Origin: an uncultured Gammaproteobacteria bacterium
Lineage (GTDB): Bacteria > Patescibacteriota > Patescibacteriia > Patescibacteriales > GWC2-42-12
Reading direction: 5' to 3'
Length of the DNA stretch: 42,560 bases
NCBI GenBank assembly: GCA_964553705.1
Contig: CAZKKV010000002.1
Coordinates: 1 to 42,560, forward strand
Position 1 is the stretch's first letter; the number at the start of each line of letters is the position of its first letter. Shown here in pieces: positions 3,276-10,282 of the stretch. The position numbers and the translations under genes are program-made. Below the pieces are notes generated by a model that ran no database searches, was not told the DNA's origin, and worked only from the letters and a program-made list of their open reading frames with translations.

Positions 3276-3887
3276 ATGAATCATCCCAGTAAAGAAAAAA
3301 CTTTAGTTATCATTAAACCAGACGGCGTTCAGCGATCTTTGATTGGCGAAATAATAAAAAGATACGAAAGAAGCGGTTTGAAGATGATTGGGCTAAAAAT
3401 AGTTATACCGACTGAGGAATTGGCTCGACAGCATTACTACGGGGTCGGTGGCGATGAATGGCTAGAAAATGTCGGTAAAAAAGCTAGAGCATCTTATGAA
3501 AAGAAAGGTTTAAAATCGCCTTATAAAACTAACAAGGACAATGGTGAGGCCGTTTTGAAAGCTAATGCTAAATATTTGAGTTCTGGACCAGTGGTGGTTA
3601 TGGTTTGGCAAGGTAATCAGGCAGTAGCTTTGGTTAGAAAAATTACTGGTGGAACAGAGCCTTTGACTTCTGATGTTGGTACTGTTCGAGGGGATTTAAC
3701 ACTTGATTCTTATGCAATCGCTGATATTGATCAGCGAAGCGTTAGAAATTTGATTCATGCTTCTGGCGATACTGAAGAAGCAAAAAAGGAAATGGCAATT
3801 TGGTTTAAAGAAGATGAATTGCTGGAGTATAATCATCTAATTGAAAAAATTCTTTACGATGTTAATCTTGACGGTATTAAAGAATAG
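3276..3887 (+). CDS. ndk: Nucleoside diphosphate kinase, unusually long (203 aa) with internal insertions and a C-terminal extension
   Basis: KTLVIIKPDGVQRSLIGEII...SGPVVVMVWQG...GTVRGD...NLIHASGD (active-site His motif). Confidence 0.9.
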   Translation: MNHPSKEKTLVIIKPDGVQRSLIGEIIKRYERSGLKMIGLKIVIPTEELARQHYYGVGGDEWLENVGKKARASYEKKGLKSPYKTNKDNGEAVLKANAKYLSSGPVVVMVWQGNQAVALVRKITGGTEPLTSDVGTVRGDLTLDSYAIADIDQRSVRNLIHASGDTEEAKKEMAIWFKEDELLEYNHLIEKILYDVNLDGIKE

Positions 3888-3966
3888 TTGTGGAAAAAGT
3901 TAAAAATTAGCGCAATTTATCAGTTTAGTGAAAAAAAATAGCTAATTTTAGGTAAAATTTTATATC

Positions 3967-3995
3967 TTGATTTTTTTGTCTAAATACTATAGAGT
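3967..3995 (+). promoter_or_regulatory. Candidate promoter TTGATT-17-TAGAGT for cassette 1
   Basis: -35 at 3967-3972 and -10 at 3990-3995. The motif TTTGTCTAAA (3975-3984) recurs upstream of cassette 3 (5013-5022). Confidence 0.4.
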
Positions 3996-4021
3996 TAGAA
4001 TTAGTAAAAATAGTTATATAT

Positions 4022-4129
4022 ATGGAAAAAGCCATGCGAAAAATCTTTACTTCTTTAAAGTCAACCACTATTTTGTTGATTGGGTTGGTTTTAATTGCAG
4101 TAGAATTTCGGGTGGCTAGGATGAGATAA
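4022..4129 (+). CDS. Leader ORF 1 (35 aa, MEKAMRKIFTSLKSTTILLIGLVLIAVEFRVARMR), hydrophobic with an Ile/Leu/Val-rich run
   Basis: ATG..TAA ORF read by hand (below the track cutoff). It has no SD, like most genes in this window. Its last codons (CGG GTG GCT) contain GGGTGGCT at 4110-4117, complementary to the 5' arm of the downstream terminator. Confidence 0.4.
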   Translation: MEKAMRKIFTSLKSTTILLIGLVLIAVEFRVARMR

Positions 4130-4150
4130 GAAAAGTTTACATAGCAAAAA

Positions 4151-4181
4151 AGCCACCCACAACAAAGAAGGGTGGTTTTTT
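4151..4181 (+). terminator. Intrinsic terminator / attenuator 1
   Basis: Stem CCACCC (4153-4158) / GGGTGG (4170-4175) followed by T6. The alternative 8-bp pairing GGGTGGCT (4110-4117) with AGCCACCC (4151-4158) would exclude the terminator. Confidence 0.7.
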
Positions 4182-4234
4182 AGTTAGGGGGAAAAGTTTC
4201 TTTTAACAATTAAACTTTTTAAAGGAGGTTATCA

Positions 4235-4441
4235 ATGGACAGAGGCAAGATTGGTATTATACCAGAATTCGGCACTGTAGGTGCTGGATCACCAGGAATG
4301 GCTGTTAGTCCTGTAATAAGAGGACATCGCAAAGCCGAAGTCAAGGTCGAAAAAGAACCTAACTTAGTGGAAGTAGGTTCACAAGATTTTTCTGATTTTG
4401 CCGCGGAGCGAGTACTTCGCATCGCCGGTGACAGAAAGTAA
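4235..4441 (+). CDS. Small orphan protein A (68 aa)
   Basis: Perfect SD AAGGAGG (4222-4228) lies 6 nt before the ATG. The ORF looks richer in G+C than the flanking DNA. No recognisable family. Confidence 0.6.
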   Translation: MDRGKIGIIPEFGTVGAGSPGMAVSPVIRGHRKAEVKVEKEPNLVEVGSQDFSDFAAERVLRIAGDRK

Positions 4442-4450
4442 AAAAGACTA

Positions 4451-4479
4451 GGGAGAAGGATATTTGCATTTCTTCTCCC
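4451..4479 (+). other. Hairpin after ORF A (GGGAGAAG / CTTCTCCC) without a clear U-tract
   Basis: 8-bp stem with a 13-nt loop, followed by TCCTGCAAAAATT. Probably a weak terminator or stabiliser, so cassettes 1 and 2 may be co-transcribed. Confidence 0.45.
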
Positions 4480-4504
4480 TCCTGCAAAAATTATTATTTT
4501 ATAT

Positions 4505-4585
4505 ATGTTTTTAAGTCAAAGGATAAAATTAATTAGCATTATTACTATTATTAATGGTGCTTTTTGCTATTCCTTGAAGACATAA
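4505..4585 (+). CDS. Leader ORF 2 (26 aa, MFLSQRIKLISIITIINGAFCYSLKT), Ile/Thr-rich run
   Basis: Hand-read ATG..TAA ORF. Its last codons carry TTGAAGAC (4574-4581), complementary to GTCTTCAA (4615-4622) of the downstream terminator. Confidence 0.4.
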   Translation: MFLSQRIKLISIITIINGAFCYSLKT

Positions 4586-4612
4586 ATAAACTAGTAATAA
4601 AAAATTAAAAAA

Positions 4613-4639
4613 CCGTCTTCAAAGGAAGACGGTTTTTTT
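4613..4639 (+). terminator. Intrinsic terminator / attenuator 2
   Basis: Perfect 8-bp stem CCGTCTTC / GAAGACGG with loop AAAG and T7, preceded by an A-run. Confidence 0.8.
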
Positions 4640-4689
4640 AAATAGTTCTTTAAAAATAATTTAAGCTCAAAGGAAGGAGGGATGGTAGC

Positions 4690-4965
4690 ATGTTAACAGG
4701 ACAAATAACGCACGGGGAAAAGTTTCGCAGCACAGAGGATTTGCAAGCACTCTTGGCGGATAGCGAGGCAGTAGTCGTTTATGGTCAAAATGGTGGCATT
4801 GTTGTTCATGGCAATCCAAACAATCCAGCCAGCTTAATTGGCTGGGAATTATTAAAAAAACAGCTGGAAGGTGCATTTTATCTTGATGAAAAAGGGGCTG
4901 CCTTAGTGTCAAAAACAAGAATGCATTTTAGAAGAAATGGGTACAGAAAAGAATATCCACTCTAA
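4690..4965 (+). CDS. Small orphan protein B (91 aa)
   Basis: SD AAGGAGG (4674-4680) upstream of ATG 4690. ORF from the track. No recognisable family. Confidence 0.6.
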   Translation: MLTGQITHGEKFRSTEDLQALLADSEAVVVYGQNGGIVVHGNPNNPASLIGWELLKKQLEGAFYLDEKGAALVSKTRMHFRRNGYRKEYPL

Positions 4966-4979
4966 GTAATTCAAAAAAA

Positions 4980-5015
4980 TAAATGGGTTCTAAATAAGAG
5001 AGCCCATTTAATTTT
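4980..5015 (+). terminator. Intrinsic terminator after ORF B
   Basis: AAATGGGTTCT / AGAGCCCATTT (11 bp, one G-U), 7-nt loop, then AATTTTG. Confidence 0.65.
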
Positions 5016-5030
5016 GTCTAAAAAATATGT

Positions 5031-5059
5031 TTGACAAAAAAGATAGATCAAGATAAGAT
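5031..5059 (+). promoter_or_regulatory. Promoter TTGACA-17-TAAGAT for cassette 3
   Basis: Consensus -35 at 5031-5036 and -10 at 5054-5059. The predicted transcription start is only about 6 nt before the leader-ORF ATG (5072). Confidence 0.6.
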
Positions 5060-5071
5060 GTTAATAAGTTT

Positions 5072-5161
5072 ATGAAACAAGCTATTTGGAAAAATTTATT
5101 GTTATGCTTATTGCTTTTGTTACTACCTAAAAGGGTGGCTTGTTTTCATACAAAAATGTAG
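5072..5161 (+). CDS. Leader ORF 3 (29 aa, MKQAIWKNLLLCLLLLLLPKRVACFHTKM), 9 Leu in 10 consecutive codons
   Basis: Hand-read ATG..TAG ORF. Codons AGG GTG GCT contain GGGTGG (5133-5138), identical to the 3' arm of the downstream terminator. It shares the R-V-A codons with leader 1. Confidence 0.4.
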   Translation: MKQAIWKNLLLCLLLLLLPKRVACFHTKM

Positions 5162-5193
5162 ATAAAAAAAATTATATAGAAATAGATGAAAAT

Positions 5194-5216
5194 ACCACCC
5201 GAACGGGTGGTTTTTT
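5194..5216 (+). terminator. Intrinsic terminator / attenuator 3
   Basis: CCACCC (5195-5200) / GGGTGG (5205-5210), loop GAAC, T6. It has the same stem core as attenuator 1. Confidence 0.75.
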
Positions 5217-5265
5217 GTATATTAGCGTTCTTTTTAAAAAATATTGAGAAAAAAAGGAGGGTGTT

Positions 5266-5433
5266 ATGTGCGGTAATGGGTGTGTTGAAGTCATGGAAGA
5301 TGGCAGTGATCTTCAGAAAAAAAATTTTAGCCCACCAAAGGAATTAAATAAAGATCAGGGGGGCGACAGAGAGAGAAAAAAGCGAGCATATGATCCTGAA
5401 ATTCAGGGCCTTAATTTCATCGGGAATCGGTGA
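5266..5433 (+). CDS. Small orphan protein C (55 aa, MCGNGCVEVMEDG...)
   Basis: SD AAGGAGG (5254-5260) and ATG 5266, read by hand (below the track cutoff). The start context AGGAGGGT..TTATGTGCGG is shared with ORF D. Confidence 0.5.
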   Translation: MCGNGCVEVMEDGSDLQKKNFSPPKELNKDQGGDRERKKRAYDPEIQGLNFIGNR

Positions 5434-5451
5434 GGTTTTGGTAAAAGCTAT

Positions 5452-5485
5452 AAGGAGATCTAATCGATCTCCTTGTTTTCATTTT
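5452..5485 (+). terminator. Intrinsic terminator after ORF C
   Basis: Perfect 9-bp stem AAGGAGATC / GATCTCCTT, loop TAATC, then GTTTTCATTTTT. Confidence 0.75.
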
Positions 5486-5487
5486 TC

Positions 5488-5515
5488 TTGCTTTTTTCTG
5501 TGAATTTGTTATAAT
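5488..5515 (+). promoter_or_regulatory. Promoter TTGCTT-16-TGtTATAAT for cassette 4
   Basis: -35 at 5488-5493 and extended -10 at 5507-5515. Confidence 0.6.
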
Positions 5516-5550
5516 TATCCACAGGTAGGTAAACTATCTATTTTTAAAAT

Positions 5551-5649
5551 ATGTTAATTAAAACAATACAAAAAACTTATTCCTATTTTTGGTTTTACTT
5601 TAACCCGTTCAGGGGATTGATTTTTTGTGGTGTTTTGACTAATATCTAA
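5551..5649 (+). CDS. Leader ORF 4 (32 aa, MLIKTIQKTYSYFWFYFNPFRGLIFCGVLTNI), aromatic-rich run
   Basis: Hand-read ATG..TAA ORF. It contains CGTTCAGGGG (5606-5615), a 10-nt direct copy of the loop plus 3' arm of the downstream terminator (5684-5693). Confidence 0.4.
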   Translation: MLIKTIQKTYSYFWFYFNPFRGLIFCGVLTNI

Positions 5650-5671
5650 GTTTAACACCATTAGGGAAAAC

Positions 5672-5706
5672 AAACCGGCCCCTCGTTCAGGGGGTCGGTT
5701 TTATTT
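5672..5706 (+). terminator. Intrinsic terminator / attenuator 4
   Basis: ACCGGCCCC / GGGGTCGGT (one G-U) with an 8-nt loop, followed by TTTTATTTTG. Confidence 0.7.
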
Positions 5707-5738
5707 TGTTCTTTTTAATAAAATTTAGGAGGGTAATT

Positions 5739-5918
5739 ATGTGCGGAGAAGACGTTTCTAGAATAAAATGGGCTATTAGTATGGTAATAGCGGCGAAAGC
5801 AAACGGAAGAGAGGAAGAAAAAGAAGAGGCGATGAAGCATTTTGTGTCCGTGATTTCAGATAAATTGGCGCAAGATGGTAGTATTCAAGAGCTTGAAGAT
5901 ATAATAAGGGGGAGGTAA
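5739..5918 (+). CDS. Small orphan protein D (59 aa, MCGEDVSRIKW..., predicted helical and acidic)
   Basis: SD TAGGAGGG (5726-5733) and ATG 5739. The track's 5706 start is a TTG inside the terminator tail and is rejected. Confidence 0.55.
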   Translation: MCGEDVSRIKWAISMVIAAKANGREEEKEEAMKHFVSVISDKLAQDGSIQELEDIIRGR

Positions 5919-5920
5919 TT

Positions 5921-6070
5921 ATGTTCAAGGCAGAAGATAAGAGTAAAAAAAGCACAGAGTTTAAAAGAAGGGGTCCGTTGTGTCGCAGGCTTTCTACTGG
6001 AGACAAAAAGAGGCAAAGAAGAAGAGAGCAAAGGTGTTTTTTTGTTTTATCTCCAGTATCTTTTTCGTGA
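5921..6070 (+). CDS. Small orphan protein E (49 aa, very basic)
   Basis: SD GGGGGAGG (5908-5915) lies inside the end of ORF D, with the ATG 2 nt after the ORF D stop (translational-coupling layout). Read by hand. Confidence 0.4.
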   Translation: MFKAEDKSKKSTEFKRRGPLCRRLSTGDKKRQRRREQRCFFVLSPVSFS

Positions 6071-6087
6071 TAAAATCGCGGTAGCGC

Positions 6088-6123
6088 AAGGTTAGATTTA
6101 AGTTTTTCTAACCTTGTTTTTTT
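6088..6123 (+). terminator. Intrinsic terminator closing the cassette array
   Basis: AAGGTTAGA / TCTAACCTT (9 bp), 10-nt loop, then GTTTTTTT. Confidence 0.75.
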
Positions 6124-6142
6124 ATGAAAAATGTGCTAGGAT
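6114..6142 (+). promoter_or_regulatory. Candidate promoter TTGTTT-17-TAGGAT upstream of the structured RNA candidate
   Basis: Hexamers read from the sequence; weak evidence. Confidence 0.3.
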
Positions 6143-6182
6143 TTTAATATAAATAAGGACATTTAAATCAATTTTGTTTATA

Positions 6183-6407
6183 GGAAAGCTTCACTAAGAC
6201 TGATACAAGTTTTGGGTCAAATTTCAAAAATTGGCTTCCTAAATCTTGTCGGACCGTGGTCTGACGGGTGCGGACTAAGGGGTAAATTTATTTTTAGTCA
6301 TCAACAAAGATTGAAATTTCAAATTGATTAAAAATAATCTGTTGTAACAACAGAACCCATTGGAGTAATGCCAATTCTTGATCAGCGTTTTTTGGTGAAG
6401 CTTTTTT
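6183..6407 (+). ncRNA. Candidate structured ncRNA (~225 nt) closed by a 12-bp terminal helix and ending in a U-tract; class unknown
   Basis: GGAAAGCTTCAC (6183-6194) pairs with GTGAAGCTTTTT (6395-6406). Internal hairpins are 6248-6265 (GTCGGAC/GTCTGAC), 6273-6299 (GACTAA/TTAGTC) and 6339-6353 (CTGTTG/CAACAG). The G-T wobbles are only valid on the + strand. No convincing ORF. Confidence 0.4.
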
Positions 6408-6422
6408 GTTTGATTTTTTGTC

Positions 6423-6537
6423 ATCCTCAGTTTGACTGGGGATCTTTTTTTAGATTCCCGACTTCGCTTGTTTTGACGTCAAGGCGGGTGGGAATGACGA
6501 CAGAGAGGATACATCCCAAATCCCTTGATTATTTTTT
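6423..6537 (+). ncRNA. Second candidate structured element with nested and mutually exclusive helices
   Basis: ATCCTC (6423-6428) / GAGGAT (6505-6510) encloses GGGGATCT (6438-6445) / AGATTCCC (6452-6459, G-U on + strand only). It also encloses CGCTTG (6465-6470) / CAAGGCG (6480-6486) around the palindrome TTGACGTCAA (6473-6482). ATTCCC can alternatively pair with GGGAAT (6490-6495). A T-run at 6532-6537 follows. Confidence 0.35.
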
Positions 6538-6551
6538 ATATTTTAGAGATT

Positions 6552-6731
6552 TTATTCTTCTATTATAATATCAAAAGGGCAAATTTCTTGGCATTTGCCA
6601 CATTTATTACATTTTTTTTCATCTATAATCGCTTTTCCGTCTTTGTCGATTGAAATTGCTCCGGAAGGACAAATTCCAATACAGGCTCCACAACCAGCAC
6701 ATTTCGATTTTTCAACTTTTAATTTTTTCAT
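6552..6731 (-). CDS. 2x[4Fe-4S] ferredoxin (59 aa)
   Basis: Hand translation: [59 protein letters not shown], with two CxxCxxCxxxCP motifs. Below the ORF-track cutoff. Confidence 0.85.
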
Positions 6732-6791: not shown

Positions 6792-7598
6792 TCATTTTTT
6801 TTGAAGCATATCTAGTTTAATAAATGGACATTCTGTTGCTTTAATTTTATCATCTAAAACTGCTCGAATAAATTCATTGCAAGATTTAAAACCGCATTTT
6901 CCGCAATTTAAATTCGGGATTAAATTTTTTAATTCTTTCCCTGCCAAGAATCTTTGCATTACTTTTGTGTCATTGATTACTTTATTACCATAGCAATAGC
7001 CGCAAATTGCTGATGGCATAGAGTGTTTTAATGTTAAACTTTTGTTTTTGATAGAATCGGTTTTTTTTATGATTTCAGCAATATCAATAGCACCTTCACC
7101 TGTAAGTCCGTTGATTTCTACTATTTTTGCTTTATGGTTTACTTTTAAGACTTTTGTTCTAAAAATTTCTCTTTCTGCTTGAGAAATTAAGTCACCCTTA
7201 CTAATGGCTACAATATCTGCTTGAGTTAAAATTGGACCGTAGCGAATAGGATCTCCTGATGTAATGTCTAAAATATTAATTCCTAAGCCTTCTTTAATGT
7301 AAGGTGAGCATCTTAAACATAGACCAGCAGTTTCAAGTATGATAATGTCTTTATCTTGATTTTTTTTAATTATTTTAGGAATTTCTAAGGCCGTATAATG
7401 ATCAGGGCAAAGTTCTCCGGCTAATTTTTTAATAGTTGGAATACCATGTTCTTTAGCAATTCGTTCGTTGTCTGAAGTGTGAAGACAATCAAATTTAGCA
7501 AAAAATAATTTAAAATCGTTTTTCAACTCTTTAATTATGTGTTTAATTATACTTGTTTTTCCTGAGCCTGGCGTGCCGGCTATTATTATAAATTTCAT
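6792..7598 (-). CDS. G3E-family P-loop GTPase (HypB/UreG/CobW-like) fused to a C-terminal RnfB/CdhD-type Fe-S cluster-binding motif
   Basis: N-terminal AGTPGSGKTS (Walker A), IIILETAGL (Walker B-like) and ISKGDL (NKxD-like). C-terminal NCGKCGFKSCNEF...ECPF matches the C-G-x-C-G-x3-C...C-P Fe-S domain pattern seen at the RnfB N-terminus. Confidence 0.7.
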   Translation of the reverse strand: MKFIIIAGTPGSGKTSIIKHIIKELKNDFKLFFAKFDCLHTSDNERIAKEHGIPTIKKLAGELCPDHYTALEIPKIIKKNQDKDIIILETAGLCLRCSPYIKEGLGINILDITSGDPIRYGPILTQADIVAISKGDLISQAEREIFRTKVLKVNHKAKIVEINGLTGEGAIDIAEIIKKTDSIKNKSLTLKHSMPSAICGYCYGNKVINDTKVMQRFLAGKELKNLIPNLNCGKCGFKSCNEFIRAVLDDKIKATECPFIKLDMLQKK

Positions 7599-7602
7599 AT
7601 TA

Positions 7603-8412
7603 TCATTTTGATTTTATAGGTTCGCAATATATTTCTACATTTTTAATTTCTTTTCCTTTTCTTATTTTTTCTCTGATTTCTAAACTATAATTTTCTATCC
7701 AATTGAGATAATAAGCAATACCTTTTTCTTTCAGGGTAGTGTCTAAAATTTTAATAACACCTCCGTCTTTTATGATAAGTCTTTTATCAGCGTTCAGCGC
7801 TAAAGAAGGATCGTGGGTGACAATTAATATTATTTTTCCTTCTTCTACTAAGGTTTTTATCGCTTTTTCTTTTCTTATACCTGCGTTTTCTATTTCATCA
7901 ATTAAAACGATGGGTGAGGTACTAATATTAGCTACATCGGAAACCATCAAAGCTCTACTTTGTCCTCCGGATAAATTAAGCAGGTTCATTTTAGGAGAAA
8001 TTGCTTCGCCGGTGATTTCATTAGCTTCTTTTATCACTTCTTCAATTAAGCCTTGTCTATTCTTTTTACCGCGAGATTCTAAATGTAATTTTAAAAAATC
8101 TTTAACCGATATATCTGTTAAAAAATTCATGGTTTGAGCTAGTGAAGCAATTAGTTTTCTTTTTGGGTTGGATTTTATTTCTTTGTCGGGAATTTTGTCA
8201 TTAATTAAAATTTTTCTTTTACTTTTAGTGTCTCTTTGAGCCAATCTCTCGATATCATAAAGCAATTGACTTTTTCCTGATCCAGTATGGCCAACAATAG
8301 CTATTACCTGACCCTTTTCTATATCTATTTTTTTAAAATTTTCTCTTTTGCCGAATTTATTTATTCCTGGTAAAATTGTGATTTTTTTTATTTTTTTATT
8401 TAAATAGTTCAT
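7603..8412 (-). CDS. Soluble ABC-type ATPase (no adjacent permease)
   Basis: GHTGSGKSQL (Walker A), LSGGQSRAL (signature), IVLIDEIENA (Walker B) and VTHDP (H-loop). Confidence 0.85.
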   Translation of the reverse strand: MNYLNKKIKKITILPGINKFGKRENFKKIDIEKGQVIAIVGHTGSGKSQLLYDIERLAQRDTKSKRKILINDKIPDKEIKSNPKRKLIASLAQTMNFLTDISVKDFLKLHLESRGKKNRQGLIEEVIKEANEITGEAISPKMNLLNLSGGQSRALMVSDVANISTSPIVLIDEIENAGIRKEKAIKTLVEEGKIILIVTHDPSLALNADKRLIIKDGGVIKILDTTLKEKGIAYYLNWIENYSLEIREKIRKGKEIKNVEIYCEPIKSK

Positions 8413-8587
8413 TTTAATATTAAAGTTAATAATTTTTTAATAAAATAATAGTTTTTGTTAAAACGGAATATTGAGTTTATATTCATAATTATAGCAACAG
8501 GGGCTTGCATGTCAAATGTAAATCAAAAAAGCAAAAAGGTATTTTTATTCTTTTGTAATTTTTTATGAAAATAAATTTTTAAATAGG

Positions 8588-8616
8588 TTGTTTTTATGGG
8601 ATTTTTGGAGTATAAT
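8588..8616 (+). promoter_or_regulatory. Promoter TTGTTT-17-TATAAT for the AbrB-like gene
   Basis: -35 at 8588-8593 and -10 at 8611-8616. Confidence 0.55.
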
Positions 8617-8635
8617 TAAGTTATGAAAGTTGGTG

Positions 8636-8655
8636 TTACGTAACATGCTACGTAA
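8636..8655. promoter_or_regulatory. Tandem TTACGTAA / TACGTAA palindromic boxes (candidate operator)
   Basis: gTTACGTAACAtgcTACGTAACA lies just downstream of the predicted -10. A third copy, ATTACGTAAT, sits at 8834-8843. Confidence 0.5.
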
Positions 8656-8675
8656 CAATGTATCAAATCAAAAAC

Positions 8676-8834
8676 ATGAAAAAATATATTAGAAAAGTAA
8701 CAAGAGTAGGCAAAAGAAGTTTGTCTGTTGTTATTCCAGCTGAAATTGTCAAAGAATTAAAGATTAGAGAAAAACAGAAATTAATAATAAAAAAATTTGG
8801 TAAAAAAATTGTAATAGAAGATTGGAAAAAATAA
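8676..8834 (+). CDS. SpoVT/AbrB-type (MazE-like) DNA-binding protein, 52 aa
   Basis: Hand translation: MKKYIRKVTRVGKRSLSVVIPAEIVKELKIREKQKLIIKKFGKKIVIEDWKK. The V-G-x-x-S-L-x-V-x-I-P-x-E-I pattern is typical of the swapped-hairpin AbrB fold. Confidence 0.7.
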   Translation: MKKYIRKVTRVGKRSLSVVIPAEIVKELKIREKQKLIIKKFGKKIVIEDWKK

Positions 8835-8843
8835 TTACGTAAT
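8834..8843. promoter_or_regulatory. Third ATTACGTAAT palindrome between the AbrB-like gene and the small membrane ORF
   Basis: 10-bp perfect palindrome overlapping the AbrB-like stop codon, 17 nt before ATG 8860. Confidence 0.45.
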
Positions 8844-8859
8844 TTTTTATATAAAAATT

Positions 8860-9051
8860 ATGAAGAAATTATTTGCTGACAAAACGCTTAATTGGTGGCA
8901 AATCGGACTACTTAAATTGTCGTTGATTTCGTTCGGAATCATTATCGGCGTTTATTGGTTCGGTTTTTTTATTAATTGGCTTTCAGTTTTGTGGCTTTTA
9001 TTCTTAGTGCCGGCTTTCTACCTTTTGTATATTTTTTGGTTGAAAGATTAA
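8860..9051 (+). CDS. Small membrane protein (63 aa, two predicted TM helices)
   Basis: ORF from the track with two hydrophobic stretches. No recognisable family. Confidence 0.55.
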   Translation: MKKLFADKTLNWWQIGLLKLSLISFGIIIGVYWFGFFINWLSVLWLLFLVPAFYLLYIFWLKD

Positions 9052-9140
9052 AAGTTGATAAAAGAAGTTAGGTATAAATTTTTTTGCCCAGAAGCAGGCG
9101 AGGTATTTTAGGTCTGATAATTTTTTTTAATTTTTGTATA

Positions 9141-9179
9141 AAATAAACCTCCACAGTGGTTGTGTGGAGGTTTATTTTT
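9141..9179. terminator. Bidirectional-looking intrinsic terminator
   Basis: AAACCTCCACA / TGTGGAGGTTT (11 bp), loop GTGGTTG, with A/T tracts on both sides. Confidence 0.7.
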
Positions 9180-9184
9180 CAGCT

Positions 9185-9221
9185 AAGCCGTATATGGGAG
9201 TAAGCAGTATACGGCTTTTTT
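9185..9221 (+). terminator. Second tandem hairpin plus U-tract
   Basis: AAGCCGTATA / TATACGGCTT (10 bp), 13-nt loop, then TTTT. Confidence 0.6.
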
Positions 9222-9301
9222 CGCACCCGATCACTAGGTGCAAGAACGAGGAGTGGGGAGGTATATTGGTACAACATAGATAGTTTTATTTTTTGTCAAC
9301 C

Positions 9302-9335
9302 AAAAAACAGTCCCGAGTACTCGGAACTGTTTTTT
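9302..9335. terminator. Bidirectional terminator (serves rpmB on the minus strand)
   Basis: AAAAAACAGTCCCGAG TA CTCGGAACTGTTTTTT with one mismatch. It lies 11 nt beyond the rpmB stop. Confidence 0.7.
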
Positions 9336-9345
9336 AAAAAAATAA

Positions 9346-9519
9346 CTATTTTGACTTAGATATGGTTTTGATACATTTAGTACAAACCTTTAGTTTCTTA
9401 CCGTCAATTTTTTTTGACTGTAGATTAACATGTTGTCTCTTGAGAGTTTTGATGTTGGAATGGGATCGACTGGCATCCTTAGTTGAGCCACGTCCACATA
9501 AATCACATTTTCTAGCCAT
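9346..9519 (-). CDS. rpmB: 50S ribosomal protein L28 (Cys4 form)
   Basis: Hand translation: MARKCDLCGRGSTKDASRSHSNIKTLKRQHVNLQSKKIDGKKLKVCTKCIKTISKSK, a typical L28 pattern (MARKC..CGK....G..vSHsn.kt.R...pNLq). Below the track cutoff. Confidence 0.9.
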   Translation of the reverse strand: MARKCDLCGRGSTKDASRSHSNIKTLKRQHVNLQSKKIDGKKLKVCTKCIKTISKSK

Positions 9520-9618
9520 AGTATAAAAAAACAGATAACAGATATTAGTCAGTAGAAATAGCTACTTGTCACCCGTCTGTTGTATTAATTAATTATACAA
9601 AATTGATATTAACATGCT

Positions 9619-9647
9619 TTGCTAAAAATATCAAGCCGTGGTAATAT
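9619..9647 (+). promoter_or_regulatory. Promoter TTGCTA-17-TGgTAATAT upstream of the M50 protease gene
   Basis: -35 at 9619-9624 and extended -10 at 9639-9647. Confidence 0.5.
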
Positions 9648-9676
9648 TATTTTAAACTAATTTTATTTATTTTTTT

Positions 9677-10282
9677 ATGACAATATTATTTTTTCTAGTT
9701 GTAGTATTATTTTCAGCAGTAATTCACGAATACATGCACGGCTGGATGGCTGATCAGCTGGGTGATCCGACAGCGCGTGATGCCGGTCGTTTAACACTTA
9801 ATCCCATAGCACACTTAGATATATTTGGATCATTCTTGATGCCATTGCTTTTATACATTAGTACAGCTGGTAATTTAGTTTTTGGTTATGCTAAACCAGT
9901 ACCGTTTAATCCTTATAATTTACGTGACCAAAAATACGGTGTAGCTAAGGTTGCTATTGCTGGACCGCTGGCTAATTTTATTACCGCTATTTTTTTTGGG
10001 TTAATTATTAGATTCATTCCAGTCTTTTCACCGCTATATGTTTTTTTAGCTATCATTATTAGAATTAATATAATGCTGATGGTTTTTAATTTGGTGCCAG
10101 TTCCGCCACTTGACGGTTCTAAGGTAATTTTGCCGTTTTTACCTTACAGTTGGCAGGTGAAATATTTGGGGTTAGAAAGATATGGTTTTTTATTGATTAT
10201 ATTATTTATTATGTTCGGTTTGACTCTGATTTTACCAATAATAAATTTTTTATGTAATTTGGTTATTGGGCAGTCATTTTAA
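9677..10282 (+). CDS. Site-2 protease family (peptidase M50) membrane metalloprotease
   Basis: HEYMHG (HExxH) in TM1 and NLVPVPPLDGSKV (NxxPxxxLDG). Multi-pass hydrophobic protein. Confidence 0.85.
   Translation: MTILFFLVVVLFSAVIHEYMHGWMADQLGDPTARDAGRLTLNPIAHLDIFGSFLMPLLLYISTAGNLVFGYAKPVPFNPYNLRDQKYGVAKVAIAGPLANFITAIFFGLIIRFIPVFSPLYVFLAIIIRINIMLMVFNLVPVPPLDGSKVILPFLPYSWQVKYLGLERYGFLLIILFIMFGLTLILPIINFLCNLVIGQSF

Follow-up and report, generated by a model that had tools for sequence, protein, structure and literature searches.

A tandem array of four putative leader-peptide attenuators precedes orphan small genes downstream of ndk in a Candidate Phyla Radiation bacterium

The stretch of DNA analyzed here, referred to as the window, comprises 42,560 nucleotides of contig CAZKKV010000002.1. 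Between ndk (3276-3887, + strand) and a ferredoxin gene on the opposite strand (6552-6731, - strand), it carries four units of like construction on the + strand (3967-6123). Very probably, these units are classical transcription attenuators of the ribosome-mediated, or leader-peptide, kind, four of them arrayed in tandem, each apparently tuned to one amino-acid class and driving orphan genes. Judging from the leader sequences, unit 1 (U1) appears to be tuned to the branched-chain amino acids (BCAA) plus Thr, U2 to Ile, U3 to Leu, and U4 to Phe, Tyr, and Trp. From the sequence, we infer that the leaders are translated, which amino acids they sense, in which direction the units respond, and where their promoters lie. 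The nearest relatives of ndk were found in metagenome-assembled genomes labelled Candidatus Falkowbacteria or Parcubacteria, and we therefore assign the window, which has a G+C content of 33%, to the Candidate Phyla Radiation (CPR). To our knowledge, leader-peptide attenuation, a textbook mechanism, is known almost only as feedback on amino-acid synthesis.

In the mechanism that we propose, each leader would be transcribed from a promoter lying shortly before it, with U2 possibly being reached by read-through from U1. A ribosome would then initiate on the leader open reading frame (ORF), which has a short untranslated region and no Shine-Dalgarno (SD) site, and would trail the RNA polymerase. 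As long as charged tRNAs are plentiful, the ribosome would cover region 2 in the 3'-terminal part of the leader ORF, so that the terminator, consisting of regions 3 and 4, would form and transcription would stop before the SD-led gene. If the cognate aminoacyl-tRNA became scarce, the ribosome would stall in the codon run, region 2 would be free to pair with region 3, and the polymerase would read through into the small gene or genes. With no translation at all, region 1 would pair with region 2, resulting in termination by default.

Results

Architecture of the units

Each unit consists of a short leader ORF lacking an SD site, an intrinsic terminator, a spacer of 21-42 nt, and a small ORF with a strong SD site. 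A first-pass annotation, made from the sequence alone, had described this architecture of leader ORF, attenuator, and SD-led ORF as a four-fold tandem repeat on the + strand, and we found it present as claimed. The four leader ORFs and five SD-led ORFs named there exist at the coordinates given for them, according to both an ORF listing and the sequence. The SD sites that it had placed before the ATGs at 4235, 4690, 5266, and 5739 were located as GGAGG cores (4224-4228, 4676-4680, 5256-5260, and 5728-5732), each 6-9 nt upstream of the start codon.

In all four units, the terminator is a G+C-rich hairpin followed by a T tract. Terminator-like sites are about eight-fold enriched between 3200 and 7000 (18 versus 2.2 ± 1.4 in shuffled sequences), and in a separate scan of the 42.5-kb window, 9 of the 17 strong terminators detected on the + strand fell within 4149-6443. 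A promoter consensus scan revealed no sigma-70-like site between the terminator and the SD site of any of the four units, in agreement with the absence of promoters asserted earlier, and the spacers are too short to hold an internal promoter.

Promoter-like sequences were found upstream of the leaders. The putative U1 site (3967-3993, + strand), read directly from the sequence, comprises a -35 element TTGATT (3967-3972) and a -10 element TATAGA (3988-3993); it was not called by the promoter consensus scan and has a counterpart in the related locus L005, TTGATT-15 nt-TATAAT. The candidate U3 promoter, TTGACA-17-TAAGAT (5031-5059, + strand), was detected by the promoter scan and is conserved in the related loci L008 and L020. 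The candidate U4 promoter (5488-5515, + strand), again read from the sequence, has a -35 element TTGCTT (5488-5493), a gap of 16 nt, and an extended -10 element TGT-TATAAT (5507-5515), and the stretch TATAATTATCCAC is invariant across four orthologues from as many genomes. For U2, a possible -35 element TTGCAT (4464-4469) lies in the loop of a hairpin that follows the U1 cargo gene, and it aligns with a promoter of locus L012, TTGACT-17-TAGAAT. Any U2 promoter would at best be weak, and U2 may be read from U1.

The first-pass annotation had also assigned a closing terminator to every unit. Such terminators were indeed found at 4980-5016, closing the U1/U2 transcript or transcripts, and at 5450-5486 in U3 (both called by two terminator scans), as well as at 6086-6124 in U4 (called by a terminator scan and conserved in L005); all lie on the + strand. 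The claim did not hold for U1. The + strand hairpin at 4451-4479 (stem 4451-4458 with 4472-4479) lacks a T tract and was called by neither of two terminator scans; without the T tract, it is no canonical terminator. U1 and U2 may share one transcript. As a separate observation, the stretch CAAAAATTATTATTTTATATAT after this hairpin also occurs in L005, where it is fused directly to a U4-type unit.

Leader peptides

Leader peptides that act in ribosome-mediated attenuation, whose mechanism has been described (PMC1183508), characteristically contain runs of a single amino acid or amino-acid class. Each of the four leaders carries one such run, which is rare compared with a background of 91 ATG-started ORFs of similar length from elsewhere in the window, and which is kept in orthologues. 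The leader ORFs all lie on the + strand. The U1 leader (4022-4129, 35 codons, MEKAMRKIFTSLKSTTILLIGLVLIAVEFRVARMR) contains the Thr/Ile/Leu/Val run TTILLIGLVLIAV at codons 15-27 (4064-4102), with Ile, Leu, or Val at 9 of 12 positions, a density equalled by 1% of the background ORFs. In the U2 leader (4505-4585, 26 codons, MFLSQRIKLISIITIINGAFCYSLKT), Ile codons occupy positions 7, 10, 12, 13, 15, and 16, and the run ISIITII (Ile 6/10) is equalled by 8% of the background. The U3 leader (5072-5161, 29 codons, MKQAIWKNLLLCLLLLLLPKRVACFHTKM) has nine Leu codons within 5096-5125, forming the run LLLCLLLLLL, and none of the 91 background ORFs reached its value of 9 Leu in 10. The aromatic run YSYFWFYF of the U4 leader (5551-5649, 32 codons, MLIKTIQKTYSYFWFYFNPFRGLIFCGVLTNI) spans codons 10-17 (5578-5601); 7 of 8 residues are Phe, Trp, or Tyr, which is again equalled by 1% of the background. 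Since each leader has a run of one class, the likely signals are the supplies of BCAA, Ile, Leu, and aromatic amino acids, respectively.

Comparison with L005 revealed that the leaders are under codon-level constraint, with ratios of nonsynonymous to synonymous substitution rates (dN/dS) of 0.19-0.28; the corresponding ratio for ndk is 0.05, and neighbouring genes have dS values of 0.8-1.2. The U1 leader peptide is 71% identical between the two loci (dN/dS 0.19, dS 0.76), the U4 leader peptide 83% (dN/dS 0.28). Homologues of the U2 leader were found in L008 (at 8979) and L012 (at 6809), orthologues of the U3 leader in L008 and L020, and homologues of the U4 leader also in L016 and L020. The orthologues retain the reading frames of the leaders and the places of their stop codons, and in the comparison with L005 the leaders are better conserved than the cargo proteins. 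The leader ORFs are presumably translated.

No SD site was found in front of the leader ORFs. The sequences suggest that many of the leader mRNAs start leaderless or near-leaderless. The U3 leader ATG follows the -10 box by 12 nt, and in the U4 unit of L016 the ATG stands straight after CCAC, giving TATAAT, 7 nt, and ATG.

Across the loci, an ATG 6-12 nt past a TATAAT-like box is a frequent arrangement; it was seen in L012 (~6797-6811), L013 (~6677-6693), the L008 unit at 6831, L009, U4 of L016 (~7545-7561), and the window at 5054-5074. The stretch between the -10 box and the leader start of U4 in the window (5510-5553) was counted with these cases of short distance.

Alternative RNA structures

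For each of 23 units from the window and its relatives, the best partner of the 5' arm of the terminator was sought from the leader ATG onward and compared with 500 leader shuffles. In 22 of the 23 units, the antiterminator partner ended 1-29 nt before the leader stop, and in 19 the duplex was superior to those of the shuffles (p ≤ 0.03). The partner sequence varies from unit to unit and always fits its own terminator, as exemplified by GGGTGGCT, GGAAGTGG, GGGCGGC, TCTTGGGCGG, GGAGATCGT, and CGCGGGTGGCT.

The individual pairings that the first-pass annotation had quoted for U1, U2, and U3 could all be traced to their positions. In U1, region 2 (GGGTGGCT, 4110-4117) pairs over 8 bp with AGCCACCC (4151-4158), the 5' arm of a terminator (4148-4181) whose 3' arm is GGGTGGT (4170-4176) and whose T tract extends to 4181; the duplex has a predicted free energy of -16.4 kcal/mol (p = 0.002). 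In U2, region 2 (TTCCTTGAAGAC, 4570-4581) coincides with the final leader codons, and its part TTGAAGAC (4574-4581) pairs over 8 bp with GTCTTCAA (4615-4622) in the terminator (AAAAAACCGTCTTC / GAAGACGGTTTTTT, 4607-4639, detected by terminator scans). In the L008 orthologue of this unit, TGAAGACG pairs with CGTCTTCA (p = 0.004). U3 has, as far as the sequence allows us to tell, the textbook layout of a four-region attenuator. Its region 1, CTACCT (5123-5128), consists of the last Leu codon and Pro and forms a hairpin with region 2, GGGTGG (5133-5138), which is followed by CTTGTTTTCAT. Region 2 pairs over 6 bp with region 3, CCACCC (5195-5200), in the terminator (5194-5216, region 5181-5216), where region 4 is GGGTGG (5205-5210) and the T tract runs to 5216. 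Together with its tail, the antiterminator strand (5132-5150) forms a duplex of -18.3 kcal/mol with 5181-5200 (p < 0.002), and GGGTGGCTTGTTT is invariant in three genomes. For U4, a 10-nt repeat had been put forward as the antiterminator. The repeat CGTTCAGGGG is indeed present at 5606-5615 and 5684-5693, but only about 5 bp of it (AGGGG with CCCCU) are usable in an antiterminator. The minimum free energy (MFE) fold places region 1 of U4 at ATTCCT (5579-5584) and region 2 at GGGGAT (5612-5617) within an antiterminator strand of 5610-5620; the terminator (AAACCGGCCCCT / GGGGGTCGGTTT, 5672-5706) has a T-rich tail and was detected by terminator scans. All of these elements lie on the + strand. 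The U4 orthologues of L016 and L020 form duplexes of -21.1 and -18.0 kcal/mol, respectively (p < 0.002), and their antiterminator strand changes jointly with the terminator arm: by eye, the leader strand GGAGATCGT of L020 pairs with the terminator-arm sequence ACGATCTCC, and GAAGAG..CGG of L016 pairs with CCGGCTCTTC.

Covariation was analyzed in an alignment of 10 U1-type units, using 500 shuffles and slid pairings as controls. In the antiterminator helix, 96.3% of the cells were paired and 4 of the 8 pairs showed compensatory changes (11 cells), a result reached in none of the shuffles; the slid controls gave 33-51%. The terminator helix was paired in 87.5% of the cells, with three compensatory pairs, likewise in none of the 500 shuffles (slid controls, 33-55%). 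Because the two helices use one common strand, they are mutually exclusive. The compensatory changes that the first-pass annotation had proposed to seek in related genomes thus occur in both helices. Covariation supports a mutually exclusive antiterminator for the U1 type, and within the window the support is weaker for U2 and U4.

Equilibrium folding is unable to show the switch, and we therefore used a co-transcriptional proxy, in which only the RNA 3' of the ribosome folds, the transcript is halted before the 3' arm of the terminator, and the probability that the 5' arm is paired is scored. In U1, this probability was 0.79-0.98 with the ribosomal A site at positions up to A26 and ~0.15 beyond. 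The values for U2 were 0.55 up to F19 (0.31 at K8) and 0.01 beyond, those for U3 0.96 up to L17 and 0.01 beyond. In U4, the probability rose from 0.33 to 0.56 up to Y16 and was ~0.30 beyond. The modelled switch thus falls where the codon run ends in U1, U3, and U4, and three codons later in U2. In this model, the antiterminator strand of all four units stays free while the ribosome is stalled in the run and is covered once the ribosome has moved past it.

The protector pairing of region 1 with region 2 is clear in U3, involves codons 3-5 in the U1-type units, and appears in U2 and U4 in MFE folds only. In the MFE fold of U1, the predicted region 1, AGCCAT (4030-4035, + strand), pairs with GTGGCT (4112-4117) if the leader is untranslated, and masking region 1 by a ribosome in the fold model gave a terminator probability of 0.00. 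Segments complementary to region 2 were picked out by eye in the alignment of U1-type homologues, and in folds of the U1-type leaders an inner hairpin encloses the regulatory codons.

Related loci

Around ndk homologues, 13 genome loci and 23 metagenome loci were fetched. Four contigs (L001-L004) are 100% identical to the window and thus give no comparative signal. The sequence of the window is also present in ERZ27248936, ERZ27248954, ERZ27248897, and JGI 3300028276. In many of the fetched loci, the cassette of leader ORF, terminator, and SD-led ORF recurs right after ndk. The leaders belong to a few types: Val-type leaders occur in L006 (MNKTTIQNRINVVVVLLVVVVVGAFGSGLTG) and L007; Ile-type leaders in L008 (MKSKITIIKITPAIIIDGSLGHSLKT) and L012 (MSKISAKIIISGIITIIDDG...); Leu-type leaders in L008 (...NLLLSLLLLLP...) and L020 (...TLLLGLLLLLP...); aromatic leaders in L005, L016 (two units), L020, and L008 (...RFYFYFFFYG...); and mixed Ile/Leu/Val leaders resembling that of U1 in L005, L008 (two units), L013, L016, L020, L021, and L024. 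The order BCAA-Ile-Leu-aromatic after ndk is common to the window (3967-6123), L008 (6831-12021), and L020 (2652-4781). In the genomes with this conserved order, ndk is 77-80% identical to that of the window, and the cargo genes differ. L005, whose ndk is 89% identical, and L019 contain only the first and last units.

In two relatives, the cargo serves the amino acid that the leader would sense. An Ile-type leader with terminator precedes the gene for a 515-aa synthase of the LeuA/CimA family in L012 (HMGL-like, 1e-32; LeuA_dimer, 4e-18), and an aromatic leader (FYFYFFFY) with terminator precedes the gene for a DAHP synthase (8e-55) in L008. Given this cargo, the module is probably used as a classical amino-acid attenuator in this lineage. 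Taken together, the pairings and their covariation, the constraint on the leader frames, the ribosome-position folding, and the biosynthetic cargo of relatives support the translation-coupled transcription attenuation that the first-pass annotation had proposed.

Cargo proteins

The presumed regulated genes, all on the + strand, encode five small, hydrophilic proteins: p68 (68 aa, 4235-4441) in U1, p91 (91 aa, 4690-4965) in U2, p55 (55 aa, 5266-5433) in U3, and p59 (59 aa, 5739-5918) followed by the basic p49 (49 aa, 5921-6070) in U4. The p49 gene starts 2 nt past the stop codon of p59 and is thus coupled to it. The earlier designation as orphan proteins is in line with profile searches, which yielded no family match for any of the five in Pfam, NCBIfam, PADLOC, or PHROGs. 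Searches with p91 and p68 against 5.8 billion proteins returned no homologue besides the queries themselves, and a phmmer search of 1.8 billion representatives with p91 gave only matches of ~1e-4 to Ig-like repeats of giant proteins. The AlphaFold2 model of p91 was unusable (pLDDT, the predicted local distance difference test score, 43). PDB sequence searches with the cargo gave nothing but a match to the designed propeller Tako8, which is an artefact of repeats. A match of p59 to S20 was below threshold (E 0.003-0.01) and was taken as noise.

Compared with L005, the cargo proteins are 28-49% identical, versus 89% for ndk and 71-83% for the leader peptides. The L005 orthologue of p68 is 49% identical and evolves under purifying selection (dN/dS 0.27), that of p59 is 28% identical (dN/dS 0.62), and p49 has a dN/dS of 0.55. 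The cargo behind one leader type varies by genome and consists mostly of small orphans, some of them zinc-ribbon-like, one with 195 aa. We also considered that the cargo genes are relics of lost biosynthetic genes and rejected this idea; no similarity was seen between the window and either the DAHP synthase of L008 or the synthase of L012.

Two further features of the cargo were recorded. The genes for p55 (5266-5273) and p59 (5739-5746) both start with ATGTGCGG (Met-Cys-Gly) and closely resemble each other in their SD regions; the beginnings of the U3 and U4 cargo may have a common origin or function. The cargo of the window, L005, L006, L007, L008, L013, L016, and L020 contains 123 residues of its own sensed amino acid versus 174 expected from the window proteome, a depletion that is confounded by the general hydrophilicity of the cargo, so that we make no claim from it.

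Discussion

The mechanism deduced here is that of a classical leader-peptide attenuator, most of whose structural features are recognizable in the sequence. Several observations weigh against this interpretation. The antiterminator duplexes of U2 and U4 were weak in the window (p = 0.058 and p = 0.088, respectively), and covariation in a four-sequence alignment of U4 was not significant, because the sequences were few and their register shifted by 1 nt. In equilibrium folds with the full terminator, moreover, the terminators of U2 and U4 win at every ribosome position. The folding of the leaders with a ribosome in place, suggested by the first-pass annotation, therefore gave a split result: the co-transcriptional proxy switched near the end of the run, and the equilibrium folds of these two units always showed the terminator. 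It follows that the decision must be kinetic, as in classical systems, and that the case for U2 and U4 rests on kinetics and on the orthologues. One clear unit, the Ile leader of L012 (6809-6954), had no significant antiterminator in the duplex test (p = 0.88); its alternative structure may be arranged differently. In the U1-type units, the protector at codons 3-5 lies far behind a ribosome stalled in the run, so that one has to invoke ribosome queuing or steric exclusion. Searches against Rfam yielded nothing at the gathering thresholds. The best sub-threshold match was Phe_leader (RF01859), with 25.7 bits for U3 and 23.2 bits for U4 versus a threshold of 55; Thr_leader (RF00506) scored 20.2 bits, likewise versus 55. 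Furthermore, hydrophobic runs are favoured by a composition of 33% G+C. Finally, none of the cargo proteins of the window is recognizable as making, importing, or charging the sensed amino acid; as the cargo genes are not amino-acid genes, the usual functional cross-check is lost inside the window.

Three other readings were considered, and each is much less likely than attenuation by leader peptides. The short hydrophobic ORFs might encode real products, namely membrane, type I toxin-like, or other peptides, with the hairpin serving as a leaky terminator that sets the peptide/protein ratio and with no amino-acid sensing involved. The leader peptides are hydrophobic and conserved (71-83% identity to L005), their dN/dS of 0.19-0.28 compares with 0.27-0.62 for the downstream proteins, and leader peptides with a function in trans are known, for example peTrpL (PMC7298713). 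However, the stretches LLLCLLLLLL, YSYFWFYF, and TTILLIGLVLIAV are near-homopolymeric by class and, with 10-14 uninterrupted hydrophobic residues, short for a membrane helix; type I toxins and small membrane proteins have a span of ~18-20 residues, which was not found here. In the aromatic leaders of L008 and L016, polar or charged tails follow the run. Moreover, the conserved C-terminal residues (SLKT, CGVLT) overlap the RNA pairing strands, and a peptide function leaves unexplained both the covariation of the strand inside the ORF with the terminator arm and the presence of the same leaders before cimA/leuA and DAHP synthase genes. We thus consider such products improbable.

Hardly any more probable, and in our view slightly less so, is the possibility that the units sense another input, be it a ribosome-targeting antibiotic or small molecule acting through nascent-peptide arrest as in the erm/cat type, or general translation stress. 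Non-biosynthetic cargo would fit this, and drug-responsive leader-peptide attenuators share the architecture (PMC6851288). Yet four adjacent units contain four different runs, the orthologues keep the run type while other residues vary, relatives link Ile-type and aromatic leaders to matching biosynthetic enzymes, and no resistance gene lies nearby. Neither hydrophobic peptides nor drug arrest explain class-specific runs together with biosynthetic cargo in relatives, which makes both less likely. No T-box or metabolite riboswitch was matched in Rfam within 3890-6560 even at E ≤ 5. The least probable reading is that the terminated leader transcripts are the main product, acting in trans as small RNAs, and that the downstream ORFs are incidental or decaying. 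No DNA of the locus is better conserved than the leader regions, p59 and p49 are near-neutral (dN/dS 0.55-0.62), and attenuator-derived small RNAs such as rnTrpL are known (PMC6614838). Against this, all cargo ORFs retain a strong SD site and an open frame in both genomes compared, and p68 is under purifying selection (dN/dS 0.27). Trans-acting RNAs would, moreover, supplement the attenuator mechanism and not replace it.

Attenuation by leader peptides places the array beside the enterobacterial leu, ilvGMEDA/ilvBN, pheA/pheST, thr, trp, and his attenuators, with which it shares the run of sensed codons, the intrinsic terminator, the antiterminator in the last part of the leader ORF, and, clearly so in U3, a predicted upstream protector (general mechanism, PMC1183508). 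U3 even resembles the trp pause hairpin in having a 1:2 hairpin followed by a U-rich stretch. In contrast to the enterobacterial systems, the cargo comprises orphan small proteins instead of enzymes, one locus combines four specificities in tandem, the leader ORFs begin 6-34 nt past a -10 box and have no SD site, all Rfam leader models score below threshold, and the host belongs to the CPR/Patescibacteria. Attenuators predicted outside the Proteobacteria, for instance in Actinobacteria, were recognized by the same features: regulatory codons in a leader peptide, helices that can form in place of each other, and a terminator (PMC1262725). All of them control genes for amino-acid biosynthesis, transport, or tRNA charging, and the cargo of L012 (leuA/cimA-like) and L008 (DAHP synthase) matches regulons of this kind. 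A precedent for leaders that are conserved above their cargo is the Sinorhizobium trpL attenuator, whose by-products rnTrpL (PMC6614838) and peTrpL (PMC7298713) act beyond control in cis; that attenuator, however, still controls trpE(G). Drug-responsive attenuators (erm/cat; Bacillus subtilis yxjB, PMC6851288) likewise combine a leader ORF, ribosome stalling, and alternative helices with a non-biosynthetic gene. Their stalling, unlike that proposed here, needs a drug and a specific nascent peptide instead of runs of one amino acid, and their cargo is a resistance gene. A full-text literature search found no description of leader-peptide attenuation in Patescibacteria/CPR. The new aspects are the conserved tandem panel of four specificities, the SD-less leaders, the CPR host, and the orphan, fast-evolving outputs.

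As to function, our guess is that the cargo represents a starvation response of an organism unable to make these amino acids. Going further, we tentatively propose, as a possibility that may well prove wrong, that the ndk-linked array of conserved order is an amino-acid-supply sensor panel of a host-dependent CPR bacterium with a reduced genome. Attenuation would here have lost its tie to biosynthesis and would now serve as an input for signalling, and the lineage-specific, fast-evolving outputs would be starvation effectors acting, for example, on the translation or metabolism of the bacterium itself or on the host cell, the source of its amino acids. If the attenuator interpretation is correct, these poorly understood, mostly uncultivated symbionts use tRNA charging to track how well they are supplied with individual amino acids, and they possess a defined set of starvation-induced genes of unknown function. 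It would also mean that attenuator modules can persist and find new use after their original target genes have been lost or replaced. The SD-less, near-leaderless leaders are also of use for studying how such organisms establish the coupling of ribosome and polymerase.

Other features of the locus

Downstream of the array, a structured RNA-like element of ~236 nt (6180-6415, + strand) is followed by a terminator (6423-6443). The element has an MFE of -76 kcal/mol (z = -6.1 versus shuffles) and had no match in Rfam even at E ≤ 5. It shares 92.6% identity over 296 nt with L019 (6962-7257), even though genes close by are almost saturated at synonymous sites. The element may be an undescribed non-coding RNA of the CPR. 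A second cluster of strong hairpin and T-tract sites, on both strands, was observed at 9144-9333 within a long intergenic stretch (8412-9677).

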